Part shown: positions 1 through 11,109 of the stretch, piece after piece
Layout of the letters: each line of letters starts with the position of its first letter
How positions within the stretch are numbered: position 1 is the stretch's first letter
Source: a virus
Lineage: Duplodnaviria; Heunggongvirae; Uroviricota; Caudoviricetes
IMG/VR virus record: IMGVR_UViG_2778261298_000001
DNA: 34,989 bases
Direction: 5' to 3' (one strand)
Notes under the pieces: generated by a model
Databases searched by the model: none
Told to the model about the DNA's origin: nothing
What the model saw: the letters and a program-made list of their open reading frames with translations, nothing else
Translations under genes and position numbers: made by a program

Positions 1-1053
1 TTACGGGGTAATGCCAACCGCTGTCGCCACTTTGTCGCCACTTGGCAGCGTTGCCAGAGGATTGAAACGGAGCGCCGTTTCCAGATGATCCGGTGCCAGA
101 TGTGCGTAACGCATAGTCATTTTTATATCGTGGTGTCCGAGAATTTTTTGTAAGGCCAGAATGTTTCCACCCGACATCATGAAGTGCGCCGCAAACGTAT
201 GGCGCAGAACGTGTGTGAGTTGACCGCGAGGGAGCACGATAGACGTTTTTTCCATCACGGATAAAAATTGAAAATAGCAGTCTGTGAAGAAATTGAACCC
301 ATCAAGCGCCATGATCTCTTCGTAAAGCTCTTTACTGATAGGGATGCTTCTGTTTTTCTTCCCCTTCGTTCTTACAAAGGTAATTCGGTATTTGGTCACC
401 TGTGAACGAGTAAGATTTACGGCTTCTCGCCAGCGTGCGCCTGTGCTTAAGCATATCTTAACTACCAGTGCCAGAATTGGGTCCTGACGTTTGCAATCAG
501 CCAGTAATTCAACAATCTGCTCATGGGTAAGCCATGCCATCTCTTTTTCTGCGATGGTGAATTTTCGCATGTTCTCCAGTGGGTTCGGATACGACCATTC
601 GCCCAGGCGGGATAGTTCGCTAAAAACACTACTTAGATAGCTTTGCTCCAGGTTAATGGTGACCGGGCTTGCTCCTTTCTTCCATTTCTCGCTGAAGTAG
701 ATCTCACCTGTCAGGCGTTTATCTCGATAGTGGGCAAACATTTTAGAGGTTAGATCAGTTGCAAGGGGATTGCCCAGAGCGTCAACCATCAGCAGCAATT
801 TGTCATAGACATGCTGCCCAGCAGTCAGTGATTTACCATGTAGTTTGAACCATAGCTCAACCACGTCTTTCAGTGTTCGACGATCCACTGATTCACCTAG
901 CCAGGGCTTTGCTTCGGTTTCTTCCATCGTGTGACGCTCAAAAGCCAGTGCTTCGCCTTTGGTGGCGAATTGTTTACGCACACGACGCCCACTACGTCCG
1001 GCGGGGTAACATTCGCAAAGCCATTTTCCTGTGGTGAGTTTTCGTACAGCCAT
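1..1053 (-). CDS. int: Tyrosine integrase (P2/186 Int family)
   Basis: C-terminal ...HVLRHTFAAHFMMSGGNILALQKILGHHDIKMTMRYAHL is the tyrosine recombinase catalytic region. The N-terminus MAVRKLTTGKWLCECYPAGRSGRR resembles P2/186 Int. Start chosen at the internal ATG (1051..1053) preceded by GGAGGG, not the track's 1131. Confidence 0.9.
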   Translation of the reverse strand: MAVRKLTTGKWLCECYPAGRSGRRVRKQFATKGEALAFERHTMEETEAKPWLGESVDRRTLKDVVELWFKLHGKSLTAGQHVYDKLLLMVDALGNPLATDLTSKMFAHYRDKRLTGEIYFSEKWKKGASPVTINLEQSYLSSVFSELSRLGEWSYPNPLENMRKFTIAEKEMAWLTHEQIVELLADCKRQDPILALVVKICLSTGARWREAVNLTRSQVTKYRITFVRTKGKKNRSIPISKELYEEIMALDGFNFFTDCYFQFLSVMEKTSIVLPRGQLTHVLRHTFAAHFMMSGGNILALQKILGHHDIKMTMRYAHLAPDHLETALRFNPLATLPSGDKVATAVGITP

Positions 1054-1241
1054 AAAAAATGCCCTCCAATAGAGAGCATTTTTACTGTATGTATAACCAG
1101 TGTCAATGTATGAAATCCTGCGACCATACATCTCACTGAAGCCATAATGAAGTAGGCTATTCTTTTTGCTATGTGATCATGTAACTTTTGCGGTTAACCT
1201 GTGGCTCATTTTTATTTTAGGCGCAGATATAAAAGCAAAAG

Positions 1242-1433
1242 TTATCGTGAGTTTTTAGTACAGATTTTTTTGGATTTACTAATAGTTCCATCATTGCAAA
1301 CGAATTTGCCATCAGAGGTACAGTGAGAAACACCTCCCTTTTTCCCTGAGCAGGGATAATTTCTAGCATAGGTAGCTAGTGGGTTTAATAACAAAGAACA
1401 TGACAAAACCACAAAAAATACCTTACCAAGCAT
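1242..1433 (-). CDS. Small cysteine-containing protein with an N-terminal signal peptide, between the repressor and int
   Basis: 63 aa; hydrophobic N-terminus [23 protein letters not shown] followed by a Cys-rich polar region. Strong GGGAGGA RBS 5 nt upstream of the ATG. AT-rich. Confidence 0.55.
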
Positions 1434-1448
1434 AATTTCCTCCCGGTA

Positions 1449-2024
1449 CTATTTAACATACTTGACTGTTAAACTTATAATTTTACCAATTATTTCAATG
1501 TCTTCTATCTTACATTCGAAGGCTCTGTTTCCACCCTCGACGAAGATTCTTCCACCGGGTAAACGAGTAATGTCACGGATCGTTATTTCGCCATCAATAC
1601 TTATTACCCATTTACCATCACGTATATCATCAAATTCCTTATCACAAATAAATTCAGAATTATTATCTGTGATTACAAAAAGATTCTTGAATGCCGACGG
1701 TAGAAATTCTCTATCGAAAATATAAAAACCGTCTTCACACAAGGCCCCATCAGATAATACATATTTAGCAACTTCCATAGTATTTGTATTACCTGAAGTT
1801 TGCTTTGAACCATGCCCGGTTGTGAGCCAATTAAGCGAGGTGCCTGTTTCAAGGGCGCACTGGATTACCCATTCTGCTGGGAATGAGTCACGCATGTAGC
1901 GTGTGGCGAGTGTACTTTTAGAGATTCCTAAATGATCGCACAACGCCTGTCGAGTCTTGAATCCATAAGCTTCTACCATGCGCTCTATGGCGCCTCGTCC
2001 GCCTTTCTCCAAATTCATGGTCAC
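1449..2024 (-). CDS. cI: CI-type immunity repressor (186 CI-like)
   Basis: 191 aa, leftward, upstream of int in the same operon as in 186. N-terminal helix-turn-helix-like segment (GFKTRQALCDHLGISKSTLATRY). GGAG RBS before the ATG. Confidence 0.75.
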   Translation of the reverse strand: MTMNLEKGGRGAIERMVEAYGFKTRQALCDHLGISKSTLATRYMRDSFPAEWVIQCALETGTSLNWLTTGHGSKQTSGNTNTMEVAKYVLSDGALCEDGFYIFDREFLPSAFKNLFVITDNNSEFICDKEFDDIRDGKWVISIDGEITIRDITRLPGGRIFVEGGNRAFECKIEDIEIIGKIISLTVKYVK

Positions 2025-3721: not shown

Positions 3722-3948
3722 TGGCTGATGCAATGGATCTCGTACAGCAGCGCGTTGAAGAAGAACGCCAACGCCATATCCGTGCTGCCCGTGCCAAAAC
3801 GCCGGGCGTGTCCCGCGTGCTTTGCGTTGAGTGTGAAGCGCCAATTCCGCCAGCACGCCGCCGTGCCATTCCTGGAGTGCAGCTTTGCATTACCTGCCAG
3901 GAAATCGCAGAGCTGAAAGGCAAACATTACAACGGAGGTGCTGTATGA
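3721..3948 (+). CDS. TraR/DksA-family C4 zinc-finger protein
   Basis: CVEC...(17 aa)...CITC four-cysteine motif in a 75-aa protein; start overlaps the upstream stop (TGATG). Confidence 0.7.
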   Translation: MADAMDLVQQRVEEERQRHIRAARAKTPGVSRVLCVECEAPIPPARRRAIPGVQLCITCQEIAELKGKHYNGGAV

Positions 3949-4802
3949 GCACCATCCTGAAATGGGCGGGTAATAAAACCGCCATTATGTCCGAACTGAA
4001 AAAATACCTTCCTGCTGGCCCGCGACTGGTTGAACCTTTCGCGGGTTCTTGTGCTGTGATGATGGCGACGGATTACCCCAGCTATCTGGTTGCGGATATT
4101 AATCCTGATTTAATCAACCTCTATAAAAAGATTGCCGCTGATTGCGAAGCGTTTATATCTCGTGCCAAAGTTTTATTTGGGGAAGCAAACAGTGAGCTGG
4201 CTTATTACAACATAAGACAGGAGTTTAATTACTCAACTGAAATTACTGATTTCATGAAGGCGATATATTTCCTGTATCTCAATCGTCACGGTTACCGTGG
4301 TTTATGTCGCTATAACAAGAGCGGGTATTTCAACATTCCCTACGGTAATTATAAAAATCCGTATTTCCCTGAAAAAGAAATTCGCGCATTTGCAGAGAAA
4401 GCCCAGCGGGCAACGTTTATCTGCGCGAGCTTTGATGAAACGCTGGCGATGCTGCAGGTGGGGGATGTGGTGTATTGCGATCCGCCGTATGACGGTACGT
4501 TTTCCGGCTATCACACTGATGGTTTCACTGAAGATGACCAGTATCACCTGGCATCCATTCTTGAACATCGGTCATCAGAAGGACATCCGGTCATTGTTTC
4601 TAACAATGACACATCCCTGATTCGTTCGCTGTATCGCAATTTTACTCACCACTATATCAAGGCAAAACGCAGCATCGGCGTGTCAGCTGGCGAGGGTAAA
4701 TCTGCAACAGAAATCATTGCTGTTTCCGGGCCGAGCTGCTGGTTGGGATTTGATCCTTCGCGTGGCGTGGATAGTTCTGCCGTGTACGGAGTGTGTGTAT
4801 GA
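3945..4802 (+). CDS. dam: Phage-encoded DNA adenine methyltransferase (Dam family)
   Basis: N-terminal LKWAGNK...EPFAGS AdoMet-binding region and catalytic DPPY motif (VYCDPPYDG). GGAGG RBS upstream of the ATG at 3945. Confidence 0.85.
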
Positions 4803-7213
4803 GTCATGACGATATGAACAATTGCAGCGGCTTTAACGAGGCCGCCGCAGCATTTTCATGGAACGGCTCGAAAAAGGCCATTAACCCTTATCTGGACCCG
4901 GCGGAAGTTGCGCCGGAGTCTGCACTTTCAAACCTGATCACTCTGTACGCTGCCGATAATGAGCAGGAACAACTGCGCCGCGAGGCACTGAGTGAGCAGG
5001 TCTGGGAGCGTTATTTCTTTAATGAATCCCGTGATCCTGTCCAGCGCGAAATGGAGCAGGATAAGCTCATTAGCCGGGCAAAGCTGGCGCATGAGCAGCA
5101 GCGTTTTAATCCGGACATGGTCATTCTGGCGGACGTAAACGCCCAGCCTTCCCATATCAGCAAGCCGCTGATGCAACGTATTGAATACTTCAGCAGCCTG
5201 GGCAGGCCAAAGGCTTATTCCCGCTATTTGCGTGAGACGATTAAGCCATGTCTGGAGCGACTGGATTGTGTACGTGACAGTCAGCTATCTGTTTCTTTCC
5301 GTTTTATGGCAAGCCATCAAGGGCTGGAGGGGCTGCTGATCCTGCCTGAAATGAGCCAGGATCAGGTGAAACGCCTGTCCACCCTGGTAGCAGCGCATAT
5401 GAGCATGTGTCTTGAGGACGCTTGTGGTGATTTGTATGCCACCGATGACGTTAAGCCAGAAGAAATCCGCAAGACATGGGAAAAGGTGGCAGCGGAAACC
5501 CTGCGTCTGGATGTTATCCCGCCTGCGTTTGAGAAACTTCGTCGGAAAAGAAACCGCCGCAAACCAGTGCCCTATGAACTCATCCCGGGTTCGCTGGCGC
5601 GTATGTTGTGTGCCGACTGGTGGTATCGGAAATTATGGAAGATGCGTTGCGAATGGCGGGAAGAGCAGTTGCGTGCTGTCTGCCTGGTCAGCAAAAAAGC
5701 ATCCCCCTATGTCAGCTATGAAGCCGTGATGCATAAACGTGAGCAGCGCCGTAAGTCGCTGGAGTTTTTTCGTTCTCATGAACTGGTGAACGAAGACGGC
5801 GACACGCTGGATATGGAAGATGTGGTAAACGCCAGCAGCAGCAACCCGGCGCATCGCCGCAATGAGATGATGGCCTGTGTTAAAGGTCTGGAGCTTATCG
5901 CGGAAATGCGCAGTGACTGTGCCGTTTTCTACACTATCACCTGTCCGTCGCGTTTCCATTCCACGCTCAATAACGGCAGACCAAACCCGACCTGGACAAA
6001 CGCGACGGTAAGACAAAGTAGCGATTATCTGGTCGGCATGTTTGCTGCATTTCGTAAGGCTATGCATAAAGCCGAGTTGCGCTGGTATGGCGTGCGGGTA
6101 GCTGAGCCGCATCATGACGGTACTGTGCACTGGCATCTCATGTGTTTCATGCGTAAAAAAGACCGCCGCGCCATCACTGCATTACTGCGTAAGTTTGCCA
6201 TCCGTGAAGACCGCGAGGAGCTGGGCAATAACACGGGACCACGCTTTAAGTCTGAGCTGATAAACCCGCGCAAAGGTACGCCAACAAGCTATATCGCGAA
6301 ATACATCAGTAAGAACATTGACGGGCGTGGTCTGGCTGGGGAGATCAGCAAGGAAACGGGTAAATCCCTGCGTGATAACGCTGAATACGTTAATGCCTGG
6401 GCGTCTCTGCATCGTGTTCAGCAATTCCGCTTCTTTGGCATTCCGGGGCGTCAGGCTTACCGTGAACTGCGATTGCTGGCTGGTCAGGCGGCAAGGCAAC
6501 AGGGTGACAAAAAAGCAGGTGCGCCGGTACTGGATAACCCGCGCCTTGATGCCATTCTGGCTGCTGCTGATGCTGGTTGTTTTGCCACCTATATCATGAA
6601 GCAGGGCGGCGTACTGGTTCCCCGTAAATATCACCTCATCAGAACCGCTTATGAAATCAACGAAGAGCCAACCGCCTATGGCGATCACGGTATTCGTATT
6701 TATGGCATCTGGTCACCCATTGCAGAGGGCAAGATCTGCACTCATGCGGTGAAGTGGAAAATGGTTCGTAAGGCCGTTGACGTTCAGGAGGCGGCAGCCG
6801 ACCAGGGCGCTTGCGCCCCTTGGACTCGTGGCAATAACTGTCCCCTTGCTGAAAATTTGAACCAACAGGAGAAAGATAAATCAGCTGATGGGGACACCAG
6901 AACGGATATTACCCGCATGGATGACAAGGAGTTGCACGATTATCTGCACAGTATGAGCAAAAAAGAGCGCCGGGAACTGGCAGCAAGGTTACGCCTGGTT
7001 AAGCCGAAACGGCGTAAGGACTACAAACAGCGAATTACAGATCATCAACGACAGCAGCTCGTCTATGAACTGAAGTCCAGAGGATTTGATGGCAGCGAGA
7101 AAGAGGTCGATTTACTCCTTCGCGGTGGCAGTATTCCGTCAGGAGCAGGCCTGCGTATCTTCTATCGGAACCAGCGTTTGCAGGAAGATGATAAGTGGCG
7201 AAACCTGTATTAA
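4799..7213 (+). CDS. A: Replication initiation endonuclease (P2 gpA / 186 A family, rolling-circle)
   Basis: About 800 aa with the HxH-type motif [14 protein letters not shown] at 4799 overlaps the dam stop. Confidence 0.85.
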
Positions 7214-7305
7214 TTACGCGGGTTAACAATTCGTGCTCTTAATAATACCAGGCATATCAGGCTGATGAACGTAAAAAAACGTTTTACATCAGTAAGATTA
7301 TTATA

Positions 7306-7325
7306 TACTGTAAATATAAACAGTA
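7306..7325 (+). promoter_or_regulatory. LexA operator (SOS box) overlapping a promoter
   Basis: TACTGTAAATATAAACAGTA matches the TACTG-(AT-rich 10 nt)-CAGTA consensus. TATACT (-10-like) lies immediately upstream; the AGGAGG RBS and the ATG at 7366 follow. Confidence 0.7.
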
Positions 7326-7365
7326 GTTATATATACAGTATTGCTTTGGTGTCATAGGAGGAAAG

Positions 7366-7554
7366 ATGCAGGACTATTTTTTGGAGTCTTTGAAGCTCCA
7401 GCGCATTGATTTTTTTCTTAAGCTTGTAGCGGCTAGTGAGTGTAGTGATGAAGAGAAGGGGCTGGCTCTGCAGTGGGTTTCTGAACTGACAGATGAACTC
7501 ATGGCAAAAATCAGAACCCACGAATACAACCGCTCAATGGATGTCATCAGCTGA
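7366..7554 (+). CDS. SOS-controlled small protein, candidate Tum-like antirepressor module
   Basis: 62-aa ORF with an AGGAGG RBS directly downstream of the LexA box. Functional call is by position and analogy with the 186 SOS operon. Confidence 0.45.
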   Translation: MQDYFLESLKLQRIDFFLKLVAASECSDEEKGLALQWVSELTDELMAKIRTHEYNRSMDVIS

Positions 7555-7564
7555 GGTGACTTTT

Positions 7565-7798
7565 ATGCGCATTGAAATAATGATCGATAAAGAGCAGAAG
7601 ATTAGCCAGTCTACACTGGACGCCCTTGAATCCGAGCTTTACCGCAATCTGCGCCCCCTGTATCCCAAAACGGTAATTCGTATCCGCAAAGGTAGCTCTA
7701 ACGGTGTGGAACTGACCGGACTGCAACTGGACGAAGAAAGAAAACAAGTGATGAAAATTATGCAGAAGGTGTGGGAAGACGACAGCTGGCTGCATTAA
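7565..7798 (+). CDS. DinI-family protein
   Basis: MRIEIMIDKEQKISQSTLDALESELYRNL...KVWEDDSWLH has DinI-like length and N-/C-terminal features. Own GAGG RBS; different frame from the upstream ORF. Confidence 0.7.
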   Translation: MRIEIMIDKEQKISQSTLDALESELYRNLRPLYPKTVIRIRKGSSNGVELTGLQLDEERKQVMKIMQKVWEDDSWLH

Positions 7799-7933
7799 GA
7801 AACGTTGCTGGCGTCTGAACTTGTTTCTGGCGTCAGCAAGGTTGAACAACGAGCCCTTGCGAGGCGTTAGCTCTGTAGTGCATGTCTATGCCGCATGAGA
7901 TCGCATGATCGTTTGAGGATCGTTTTTGCTAAG

Positions 7934-7958
7934 GCCCGCCAGAACTGGCGGGCTTTTG
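7934..7958 (+). terminator. Intrinsic terminator after the SOS operon
   Basis: GCCCGCCAG-aa-CTGGCGGGC hairpin followed by TTTTG. Confidence 0.6.
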
Positions 7959-8002
7959 CGTAGATAATGCACCTGCATGAAAACCACTACATAAAGCGGG
8001 CA

Positions 8003-8021: not shown

Positions 8022-8111
8022 CGCGCGTTGCAAACCATGTCGATGCTGTTATCATTTGCAGCAAGTTTTCAAAGTGCTAAAGCATTCTTTAATTCCAAGG
8101 TAGGTATAGAT

Positions 8112-10052
8112 ATGATAGCCGGGTTGTTTATCCGTAACGTCAAAACATATCAAGGCATAAATTATATTCCTTTGACAGATGCTCCAAATTTTAGCGGTTT
8201 TTTAGGAAATAATGGGATAGGGAAAAGCTCAATACTTGAGGCATTGGATGTAATATTTAATGCTAAAGAGTGGAATTATAATACAGCTGTCAAAAAGAGC
8301 GGCATAGAAAAAACCAGCCCACATATTGTACCGGTTTTTATATTGGAGGAGGATTTTTTTGATTCTGAGACACTCCCTTTTGCAAAAACGCTAGATGCTT
8401 TAGCTAGGGAGGTTAGCTTAGAGGACGCTACAAACTCACAAACAAAAACTATTCTTGAAAATTTTATAAGTCATCGTGATAGACTTTTTGCACGAAATGA
8501 TATGCAAGGGCAGTTAATTATTCCTATTGGACGCCTTCATAATAATAATATGTCATTATCTGTTTTAGCAGGTAGAAGTCTATCTACTATAATGGAAAAA
8601 GATATATTTGGTGCCGGATTCAAGTTAAGTGAAGGTATAGAGTTAGCTAAACATTTTCAAGTTTTATTTGATTATATCACTGGTAAGTTAGAATATTTAT
8701 ATATACCAAAAGAGATTGATACTGAGGTTTTTACTAAGCTTGAGAGTATTGGAACTCAAGTATTGATGGGTGAATCGCTGCATGAAATTCTTGATAGAAT
8801 AGTTGGTGAGTCAAAAATTGGAGAAATCAACAGAGAACTAAGCGGATTTCTTGAAGATATCTCAACGAAGCTAGTTAACTATACGTATAGAACGCCTTCG
8901 GATAGGCAAAAAAGAATTCAAAAAAAAGAAGTCTATAACTTAATTATACAAGCGTTTTTTAACGTCAGAAAATTACATAAAACCCACAATGGCGAGCATT
9001 TTTTAGAAATTAGTAATTTGAGTTCGGGGGAAAAGCAGAAGGCTATTATTGATGTTGCGCATGCATTGCTGACAAAGCATAGAAGTAATAGTGATAATTT
9101 AATCATAGCCATAGATGAACCTGAGTCTTCATTGCACATGTCTGCTTGTTTTGAACAATTTCAAGCGTTATCAGAACTAAGTTTAGGATGTAGGCAACTA
9201 TTGTTTTCCTCTCATTGGTATGGTTTTCTCCCCACCTTGGAAAAGGGAACTGTTACAATAATAACTAAAAAAAATAATGAGCATCTTTTTGATCTGATCA
9301 ATTTAGCATCTTACCGGGAAGAAATAAAACAACTTGTTCGAGATAGTAGGGGAAAGTTACCATTTGATATTAGAATTAAAAGTATGAATGATTTTACTCA
9401 GTCATTATTATCTAGTGCAACAGGTGAGAAACCATATAATTGGTTGATTTGTGAGGGTTCATCGGAAAGAATTTATCTTTCAGCATATTTTAAGGATTTG
9501 ATAAAGAATCATAATCTTCGTATTGTACCTGTTGGGGGGGCGTCGGAAATTAAAAAAATATATAACTATCTCTCTGCCTGCTATAAGGATGTCGAAGGGG
9601 AGATTACCGGAAATATATATTTGTTAGCTGATACTGATAGCCAGTTGGTCAGATATGACGTCGGAACATATCAAAGATTACATTGTAAAAGATTTGTTTA
9701 TGATTCGTCTAAAAACAGGGCAATCTTAGTTAAGATAGACTCAAATCCGGTATCGCCTGCAACTGAGATAGAGGATGTTTTGAACGCAAAAATCTATTAC
9801 CAGACCTTATTGTCATTTGCTGGTGATTACGATTATTTAAGTTTCATTAATAATATTGATGCTCCAAGTGATAATCTGGAATCTTACTCAGCTCTTGATC
9901 TCAGAGTTAGTGAAAAAAATGCCATAAATAGATTTTTTGATGATGGAAATAATAAGTTTTTATTCGCAAAAAGATATGTTGAATTAATGACGGAAGAAAA
10001 TAGTGTTCCAGAGTGGATTAGTAAGATTAGAGAGGTAATGACTTCAGCTTAG
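8112..10052 (+). CDS. ABC-type ATPase fused to a TOPRIM-like nuclease domain (OLD/Gabija/PARIS-like); candidate anti-phage defence cargo
   Basis: Walker A GNNGIGKSS (about 8205..8231), ABC signature LSSGEKQ (about 9013..9039), Walker B/D-loop LIIAIDEPESSLH (9099..9125) and H-loop-like LLFSSHW. Then a TOPRIM-like LICEGSSE (about 9441..9467), PVGGASE and LLADTDS (about 9621..9641). Start set at the ATG at 8112 (MIAGLFIRNVK, typical ABC N-terminal strand). Markedly AT-rich compared with flanking phage genes. Confidence 0.75.
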   Translation: MIAGLFIRNVKTYQGINYIPLTDAPNFSGFLGNNGIGKSSILEALDVIFNAKEWNYNTAVKKSGIEKTSPHIVPVFILEEDFFDSETLPFAKTLDALAREVSLEDATNSQTKTILENFISHRDRLFARNDMQGQLIIPIGRLHNNNMSLSVLAGRSLSTIMEKDIFGAGFKLSEGIELAKHFQVLFDYITGKLEYLYIPKEIDTEVFTKLESIGTQVLMGESLHEILDRIVGESKIGEINRELSGFLEDISTKLVNYTYRTPSDRQKRIQKKEVYNLIIQAFFNVRKLHKTHNGEHFLEISNLSSGEKQKAIIDVAHALLTKHRSNSDNLIIAIDEPESSLHMSACFEQFQALSELSLGCRQLLFSSHWYGFLPTLEKGTVTIITKKNNEHLFDLINLASYREEIKQLVRDSRGKLPFDIRIKSMNDFTQSLLSSATGEKPYNWLICEGSSERIYLSAYFKDLIKNHNLRIVPVGGASEIKKIYNYLSACYKDVEGEITGNIYLLADTDSQLVRYDVGTYQRLHCKRFVYDSSKNRAILVKIDSNPVSPATEIEDVLNAKIYYQTLLSFAGDYDYLSFINNIDAPSDNLESYSALDLRVSEKNAINRFFDDGNNKFLFAKRYVELMTEENSVPEWISKIREVMTSA

Positions 10053-10077: not shown

Positions 10078-11109
10078 TTACATGAGGTCATAAAATTCGA
10101 ATTTTATGACCTCATTATCTATCCAATTGTTAATTTCAATTATTTTCTTTTGTAGAGGAAGAAGTTCATTACGAACAAACACTTTACTCGCCTTCTCCAC
10201 ATCCCCAAACCCCCCGACATTATTAGGCATAATCCCCATCATCTGAGGCGGTACGCGGTGCGCCGCCATCATGTCATCACGGCTGACGTTCTTGATGTTC
10301 AGAAATTCATCCTTCGCTGCGACTTCTGACAATGGGATAATCTGAAGTCCGTCTTTTTTACCATTAGGCGAGTACATAAACAGATTGCGGAAGTTACCCG
10401 GACCTTTGGCGCTTTTCATAGCGTTACGGAGATTGTTCACATCTTCCTGGTTCTGCGCGGCATCGGTCATGTACATGATGAAGCCTGCATGGCTGCCATT
10501 GATGTAATACTTACGGCGGAACAGCGTGGCGGACTCGTTGAGCAGAGCGGATGGAATAGCAGAAAGATAGCCTGGCAGGCCGTAGATCTCCTGATTAATA
10601 TCCGGTTCCATCAGATGAAAGATGCTGCCTTTCGTGAACTGATACGGCTGGGTTGTCATACCGTATTGCACAAACCAGTAGGTATCTAGGTCTAACCCGC
10701 GTCGGGTGTATTTTGCCAGAGCAGGCTCAAGGGCTATAACTTCACCGAAGCGGTTCGTGCGTTTCTCCAGGTAGGCGTTACCAAATACCAGATAGTCCTG
10801 CACAAAACGTGAAAAAGCCTGCTGGCTGAGCAGCGGGTGAGGGATGTAGGTACTGGTCAGAATGTTGCATTTCACCGCAATTGGTGAGCTGTGATGCACG
10901 GCGGCGCGGAAGGTTCGTGCCAGTCCGTCAAAGCTGACGGGCGGCTCATACCAGCGATCCATCTGTACGCATTCCACATAGTCCAGCAGTTCACGGCGGT
11001 CCAGAACAGGAACGGGATCGCCAAAGCTGAATGCTTCGGCTGAAGTCTGGCTTTTATGCTTGAGCTGATTCGTCGCCGCAGCGCGGTTTTTCTTACTCTT
11101 TCCCATCAA
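10078..11109 (-). CDS. Q: Portal protein (P2 gpQ family)
   Basis: 343 aa; position and orientation as P2 Q, adjacent and co-oriented with the terminase large subunit. Confidence 0.85.
   Translation of the reverse strand: MMGKSKKNRAAATNQLKHKSQTSAEAFSFGDPVPVLDRRELLDYVECVQMDRWYEPPVSFDGLARTFRAAVHHSSPIAVKCNILTSTYIPHPLLSQQAFSRFVQDYLVFGNAYLEKRTNRFGEVIALEPALAKYTRRGLDLDTYWFVQYGMTTQPYQFTKGSIFHLMEPDINQEIYGLPGYLSAIPSALLNESATLFRRKYYINGSHAGFIMYMTDAAQNQEDVNNLRNAMKSAKGPGNFRNLFMYSPNGKKDGLQIIPLSEVAAKDEFLNIKNVSRDDMMAAHRVPPQMMGIMPNNVGGFGDVEKASKVFVRNELLPLQKKIIEINNWIDNEVIKFEFYDLM

Follow-up and report, generated by a model that had tools for sequence, protein, structure and literature searches.

Organisation of the locus

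At its left end the window, i.e. the whole stretch of 34,989 bp that was analysed, has the gene order of a P2/186-like (Peduoviridae) prophage, as judged from the list of open reading frames and their profile matches. An integrase gene (1-1131, minus strand) is followed by a 63-aa ORF (1242-1433, minus strand), by the gene of a 186-type CI immunity repressor (1449-2024, minus strand), which is the inferred target of the candidate antirepressor described below, by an apl-like gene (2144-2365) and by cII (2392-2907). An ORF of 305 aa with a DPPY motif (3885-4802, plus strand) overlaps the start of the replication gene A (4793-7213), whose product matches Pfam PF05840 with an E-value of 3.6e-127. 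The module studied here lies directly after gene A, where it occupies a 150-nt gap 3' of this gene plus the next two small genes; it shares a P2/186-like prophage with a 186-type CI and with apl-like and cII-like genes. Further downstream a large cargo gene (8028-10052, plus strand, likely start ATG 8112) is the sole gene that fills the variable slot between the second small gene, which is DinI-like, and the portal gene (10078-11109, minus strand).

Some of the neighbouring genes deserve a short comment. The product of the cargo gene is OLD-like, combining an AAA_15/AAA_21 ATPase with an OLD-like TOPRIM domain, and its best PADLOC matches are AriA and Old. The slot corresponds to the tin/old position of P2, a known hotspot for anti-phage cargo. 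The 63-aa ORF between integrase and cI encodes a protein that has several cysteines and a hydrophobic N-terminus resembling a signal peptide, belongs to PHROG 6000 (unknown function) and has a counterpart annotated in E. coli HS as ECHS_RS23290; it may be a moron expressed in the lysogen. The counterpart of the 305-aa ORF in the prophage DuoHS of E. coli HS is annotated as a DNA adenine methylase, while in phage 186 the gene directly upstream of A is annotated as a PAPS reductase-like orf instead.

The LexA operator and the putative SOS promoter

The gap behind gene A contains the LexA operator (SOS box) TACTGTAAATATAAACAGTA at 7306-7325. A near-consensus LexA box had been noted here before, and the search of the window agrees with this: when up to three mismatches to the consensus TACTGTATATATATACAGTA were allowed, the box at 7306-7325 was the only match (two mismatches, which both fall within the AT spacer), and the pattern CTGT-N8-ACAG likewise has its single occurrence in the 34,989 bp at this place. 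Only one of 100 dinucleotide-preserving shuffles yielded any match of that kind to the LexA consensus. The box is identical in DuoHS and in the Salmonella prophage Fels-2. Judging from its sequence, LexA would bind at 7306-7325.

TACTGT (7306-7311), with which the box begins, forms a putative -10 element, which is separated by a 17-nt spacer from a putative -35 element TTTACA at 7283-7288 (plus strand). The overlap of the box with a promoter-like -10, which was part of the original description, has its parallel in promoter p95 of phage 186, where TTCACA and TACTGT are 18 nt apart and the annotated -10 also lies within the LexA site. A generic promoter scan did not call the pair TTTACA/TACTGT, because TACTGT matches only three of the six positions of TATAAT. 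The promoter call therefore rests on the analogy to 186, by which the pair is the putative SOS promoter of the module and the equivalent of p95.

A degenerate second LexA-like site, intact in its right half ATACAGTA alone, overlaps the right end of the box (7321-7340). In a MAFFT alignment the half-site ATACAGTA aligns with the right half of the boxes of 186 and PSP3, and the second site may be what is left of an ancestral operator, or else a weak auxiliary one. From the full LexA box to the start codon the distance is 60 nt in the window; 186, PSP3 and distant relatives have 38-42 nt. It is conceivable, but in our opinion rather doubtful, that the lineage of Fels-2 and DuoHS possesses a retuned SOS switch, characterized by the box distance of 60 nt, the relic half-site at the ancestral position and a DinI in its own cistron. 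If this were true, the induction threshold or the timing of induction could differ from that of 186.

Two small genes correspond to the two parts of 186 Tum

The first small gene encodes 62 aa and extends from ATG 7366 to TGA 7552-7554 (7366-7554, plus strand). It is preceded by the RBS AGGAGG (7356-7361, plus strand), which ends 4 nt before the ATG, so that the strong RBS and the 62-aa ORF are indeed found just downstream of the box, where the earlier note had placed them. The second gene (7565-7798, plus strand, ATG 7565) encodes 77 aa. Also for this gene the first description proved accurate: it starts after a gap of 10 nt, lies in the +1 frame relative to the first ORF and has its own RBS, GAGG (7553-7556, plus strand), which overlaps the stop codon of the first gene and is located 8 nt before the ATG. 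Its product belongs to the DinI family, matching positions 1-63 of the 63-position Pfam profile PF06183 (E 6.6e-23, 81.3 bits compared to a cut-off of 24.2 bits) and being assigned to PHROG 189, 'RecA filament binding protein DinI'. With the NCBIfam equivalog model of chromosomal DinI it reaches 42.7 bits, below the cut-off of 111 bits, and is therefore a member of the DinI family but not an orthologue of the host DinI.

In the record of phage 186 tum is annotated as a LexA-repressed gene whose product inhibits DNA binding of CI and has a DinI-like C-terminal part, in line with the earlier note. This note had also proposed that the two parts of Tum are encoded here by separate cistrons of about 140 aa in total. 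The two ORFs sum up to 139 aa, compared to 146 aa for 186 Tum, and the alignment of both ORFs to Tum, which was run for this analysis, relates each of them to its part of the protein, although by different means. The DinI-like ORF can be recognized by identity (41% to residues 71-145 of Tum), whereas for the 62-aa ORF BLASTP gave no alignment with Tum and a tblastn search of the phage collection reached 186-like 'tum' genes only at an E-value of about 4. The homology of this ORF to Tum became visible with profile methods only.

The family of the 62-aa protein was collected by a HMMER scan of 1.84 billion representative proteins, which gave 66 representatives, all of them short. An HMM built from 29 of the 66 representatives and the 62-aa protein itself finds residues 6-48 of 186 Tum with 35.5 bits (E 4e-7, Z = 1e6) and gives 36-44 bits on the top-ranked of 120 relatives of the N-terminal 70 residues of Tum. 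Shuffled Tum N-termini (2000 made, 1895 scored) reached 7.7 bits at best. In hhalign the family of the 62-aa protein and that of the Tum N-terminus align with a probability of 96.7% (E 3.3e-10) over residues 1-44 of both, collinear from residue 1, with an identity of about 17% between the 62-aa protein and the Tum N-terminus over this region. Both families share an almost invariant cysteine in the loop, and it is followed in both family consensus sequences by the stretch (D/E)-K/R-E-h-A-L-x-h-h-x-E-h. AlphaFold2 models the 62-aa protein as a helical hairpin (helices 2-22 and 28-61, pLDDT 85.7) with the cysteine in the turn. These comparisons support a homology of the 62-aa ORF to the N-terminal part of 186 Tum, which makes it a tumA-type gene, and the DinI-like gene can be named tumB.

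Neither Pfam nor NCBIfam has a model for the 62-aa protein, its PHROG (698) is of 'unknown function', and PADLOC found no match for the 62-aa ORF or the DinI-like ORF. All 25 RefSeq rows of E. coli that were inspected call the 62-aa gene 'hypothetical protein', as do most phage records; once it goes by the name 'levan regulatory domain protein'. With the profile-level homology to 186 Tum these genes could be named, and P2-like prophages could be sorted from their sequence alone into those which are SOS-inducible and those which are not.

The relatives listed for residues 1-70 of 186 Tum are also mostly short (63-78 aa), some of them being named 'Tum protein' and being without a DinI domain. 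The split form thus seems to be common even within the 186-type subfamily.

The split would be only apparent if programmed frameshifting joined the two ORFs into a Tum-like fusion. In favour of this, 25 codons ahead of the ATG of the DinI-like gene are open in its frame, which overlaps there with the 3' end of the 62-aa ORF. However, 25 open codons correspond to the chance expectation, and the frame is closed by TGA 7487-7489. Neither a +1 slippery sequence nor a stop context could be recognized, and the DinI-like gene has an RBS and an ATG of its own. In addition, the stretch from the tumA stop to the ATG of the DinI-like gene is invariant in DuoHS and Fels-2, PSP3 is annotated with two genes, and an internal GTG start gives a DinI-only product in 186, too. 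We consider frameshifting highly improbable, and with the frame closed at 7487-7489 and a separate RBS and ATG present the fusion was rejected as a candidate.

The record of phage 186 lists four nested tum CDSs (tum at 7083-7523 of the 186 locus), including the GTG-initiated, DinI-only product of 76 aa, which is annotated as modulating SOS induction. Phage 186 thus expresses its DinI part both fused and on its own, and separate expression is no peculiarity of the split forms.

The end of the SOS transcript is plausibly an intrinsic terminator-like hairpin at 7931-7958 (plus strand), which was found by RNA folding and has the GC-rich stem GCCCGCCA / TGGCGGGC followed by TTTT, with the T-run on the plus strand only. 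The fold of the 170 nt from 7796 to 7965 has a z-score of -3.45. A simple terminator scan did not list the hairpin at 7931-7958. Upstream of it another hairpin (7801-7843, plus strand; about 11 bp plus an inner stem) directly follows the end of the DinI-like gene. It is long, almost perfectly paired and without a T-run, and could be an element for RNA stability or processing.

The same module in PSP3, Fels-2 and DuoHS

A split tum module as such is already known, namely from the annotation of PSP3, the description of Fels-2 and the genetics of DuoHS. The practical gain of the present analysis consists in the annotation only; the biology is not new. Lemire et al. 2011 (PMC3121763), citing Bunny et al., describe Fels-2 and PSP3 as having tum split in two, and for PSP3 they ascribe the antirepressor activity to the upstream gene of the pair. 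The PSP3 record gives this gene, tumA, the note 'similar to 5' end 186 tum; UV induction of prophage', and it lists tumB as a DinI-like gene. PSP3 resembles the window in possessing a LexA box, a tumA of 60 aa and a DinI-like tumB of 77 aa directly after gene A. The sequences of the two tumA products, on the other hand, are rather distant: the HMM of the 62-aa family did not detect PSP3 TumA, which is the only split form with a reported antirepressor activity, and hhalign aligns the two in the same register with a probability of 15%, while PSP3 TumA is closer to the N-terminus of 186 Tum (78.5%).

Fels-2 is a much closer relative. Of its genes STM2728 and STM2726.1, STM2728 encodes a protein with 98.4% identity to the 62-aa protein of the window, and the LexA box, the layout and the position after gpA are the same. 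Differences concern the host genus, which is Salmonella, and a few substitutions in the spacer between box and RBS. In 186, the LexA box over the -10, the homologies to an N-terminal antirepressor and a C-terminal DinI-like part, the location after gene A and the family of the CI repressor are shared with the window. However, 186 Tum is one polypeptide of 146 aa, whereas the window has two cistrons in different frames, and 186 has an orf97 downstream which is missing in the window. The position directly after gene A is common to 186, PSP3, Fels-2, DuoHS and also to distant relatives.

A similar logic is known from phages outside this group. GfoA/GftA of the Gifsy phages and AntC of N15 are also small antirepressors which are repressed by LexA and directed against a non-cleavable repressor, and in the Gifsy phages a dinI homologue is part of the antirepressor operon, as in the window (PMC3121763).

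A near-identical prophage is DuoHS from E. coli HS. Its gene ECHS_RS04495 is a 62-aa gene after gene A whose product is identical to that of the window in 61 of 62 positions, the difference being the conservative exchange T51S. Not only the LexA box but also the promoter and the RBS are identical, the gene order is the same, and a DinI-like neighbour (ECHS_RS04500) follows; only the cargo 3' of it differs, the OLD-like ATPase of the window being replaced by two hypothetical proteins in HS. Deletion of ECHS_RS04495 ('tum') abolishes the lysis induced by mitomycin C, and so does a lexA(Ind-) mutation, while in the delta-tum strain the SOS reporter of the host is still responsive (PMC12055606, 2025). 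The primers used for the deletion, NHR24 and NHR28, are given in the supplement and correspond to 7346-7368 (one mismatch) and 7552-7574 (exact) of the window. From these positions it follows that the deletion fuses ATG 7366 to TGA 7552, and therefore removes exactly the 62-aa ORF and leaves the DinI-like gene intact.

The repressor and the route of prophage induction

The CI repressor of the window is 33% identical to 186 CI, contains the same two domains (Phage_CI_repr and Phage_CI_C) and matches the solved structure of 186 CI (PDB 2fjr) with an E-value of 2.6e-31. All of the 188 residues compared with DuoHS CI are identical, the RefSeq start of the HS orthologue being the ATG equivalent to 2018 of the window. 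In the C-terminal domain there is also a weak match to Peptidase_S24 (16.3 bits), which, together with the presence of a DinI-like protein acting on RecA in the operon, could be taken to mean that the prophage is induced like lambda by RecA-stimulated self-cleavage of CI, and that the LexA-controlled operon has no more than an accessory, DinI-type role in modulating SOS. But the S24 match stays below the cut-off of Pfam (23.3 bits), and the region is assigned to Phage_CI_C, as in 186 CI. Moreover, in DuoHS, whose CI is identical over the 188 residues compared, the deletion of tum abolishes induction despite an intact DinI-like gene and a host SOS reporter that still responds. There is hardly any probability left for induction by cleavage; the type of CI and the sub-threshold S24 match fit an induction by antirepressor, as opposed to RecA-stimulated cleavage. 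SOS induction via an antirepressor is also what the earlier note had suggested, and with a 186-type CI in the window and the loss of mitomycin C induction in both the delta-tum and the lexA(Ind-) strain of DuoHS (PMC12055606) this proposal has gained considerable ground.

Taken together, we assume with a probability of roughly 0.9 that the module represents the split tumA-tumB form of the SOS induction switch of a prophage of the 186/Fels-2 type (Peduoviridae). In the lysogen the LexA protein of the host would sit on 7306-7325, overlapping the -10 just 3' of gene A, and would silence the transcript of the two genes. After DNA damage RecA would be activated, LexA would cleave itself and the promoter would fire. 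The 62-aa helical-hairpin TumA would then be made and would inactivate the 186-type CI by protein-protein interaction, which would lead to lytic growth. The DinI-family protein, as the equivalent of the C-terminal half of Tum, most likely acts on RecA filaments and modulates the SOS signal, and would not be the inducer itself. This role of the DinI-like protein is taken over from 186, and it is likewise by analogy to 186 that we infer a direct binding of the 62-aa protein to CI.

The last point leaves room for a variant in which the 62-aa protein is needed for induction without binding CI, and acts instead on Apl/CII, on LexA or RecA, or on the stability of CI. The documented requirement for the DuoHS orthologue is genetic only, a direct binding of CI is known only for the full-length Tum of 186, and the identity of the 62-aa protein to Tum is as low as about 17% over the aligned region. 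Yet the homology to the Tum N-terminus runs collinear from residue 1, and the repressor to be targeted and 186 CI belong to one family. The antirepressor activity reported for PSP3 TumA also indicates that in a split system the N-terminal half alone is enough. We therefore regard a mode of action without CI binding as unlikely, with a small probability that is nevertheless above that of repressor cleavage or of frameshifting.

Distribution and distant relatives

The module is widespread in E. coli, where we found it in 1125 of 5426 complete genomes, that is in about a fifth. A region of 700 bases that includes it is matched at 100% identity by two E. coli chromosomes and at 90-98% by many phage records from Escherichia and Klebsiella. 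In Salmonella phages the 62-aa product is 88-98% identical.

In order to cover more distant relatives two IMG/VR searches were performed, seeded with proteins which are 33-35% identical to the 62-aa protein; in total they gave 17 loci. In sixteen of them a consensus LexA box is located 41-42 nt upstream of the start codon and represents the sole strict box in the locus. A DinI homologue within 1.2 kb was found in none of the 17 loci. In the one distant locus that was inspected the tumA-type gene directly follows gene A and has an ogr-like gene, not a DinI-like one, as its downstream neighbour. The distant loci with a LexA box and without DinI therefore point to the tumA-type gene under LexA control as the conserved core of the module and to DinI as an optional passenger; the DinI-like part may not be strictly defining for the module. 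A scan for related loci with P0288 found nothing.

Many of the distant TumA-family proteins carry a glycine-rich C-terminal tail, e.g. KKNPQxGGSDSGLLQ, which always ends with LQ or FQ; the protein of the window is without such a tail. It occurs in the loci L005-L021 (match 1201-1407 in most of them) and in P0267, P0269, P0272, P0275, P0292, P0297 and P0301. The form KNPQxGGxxSGLLQ is conserved in a subgroup of the tumA family and could be a signal for turnover or processing.
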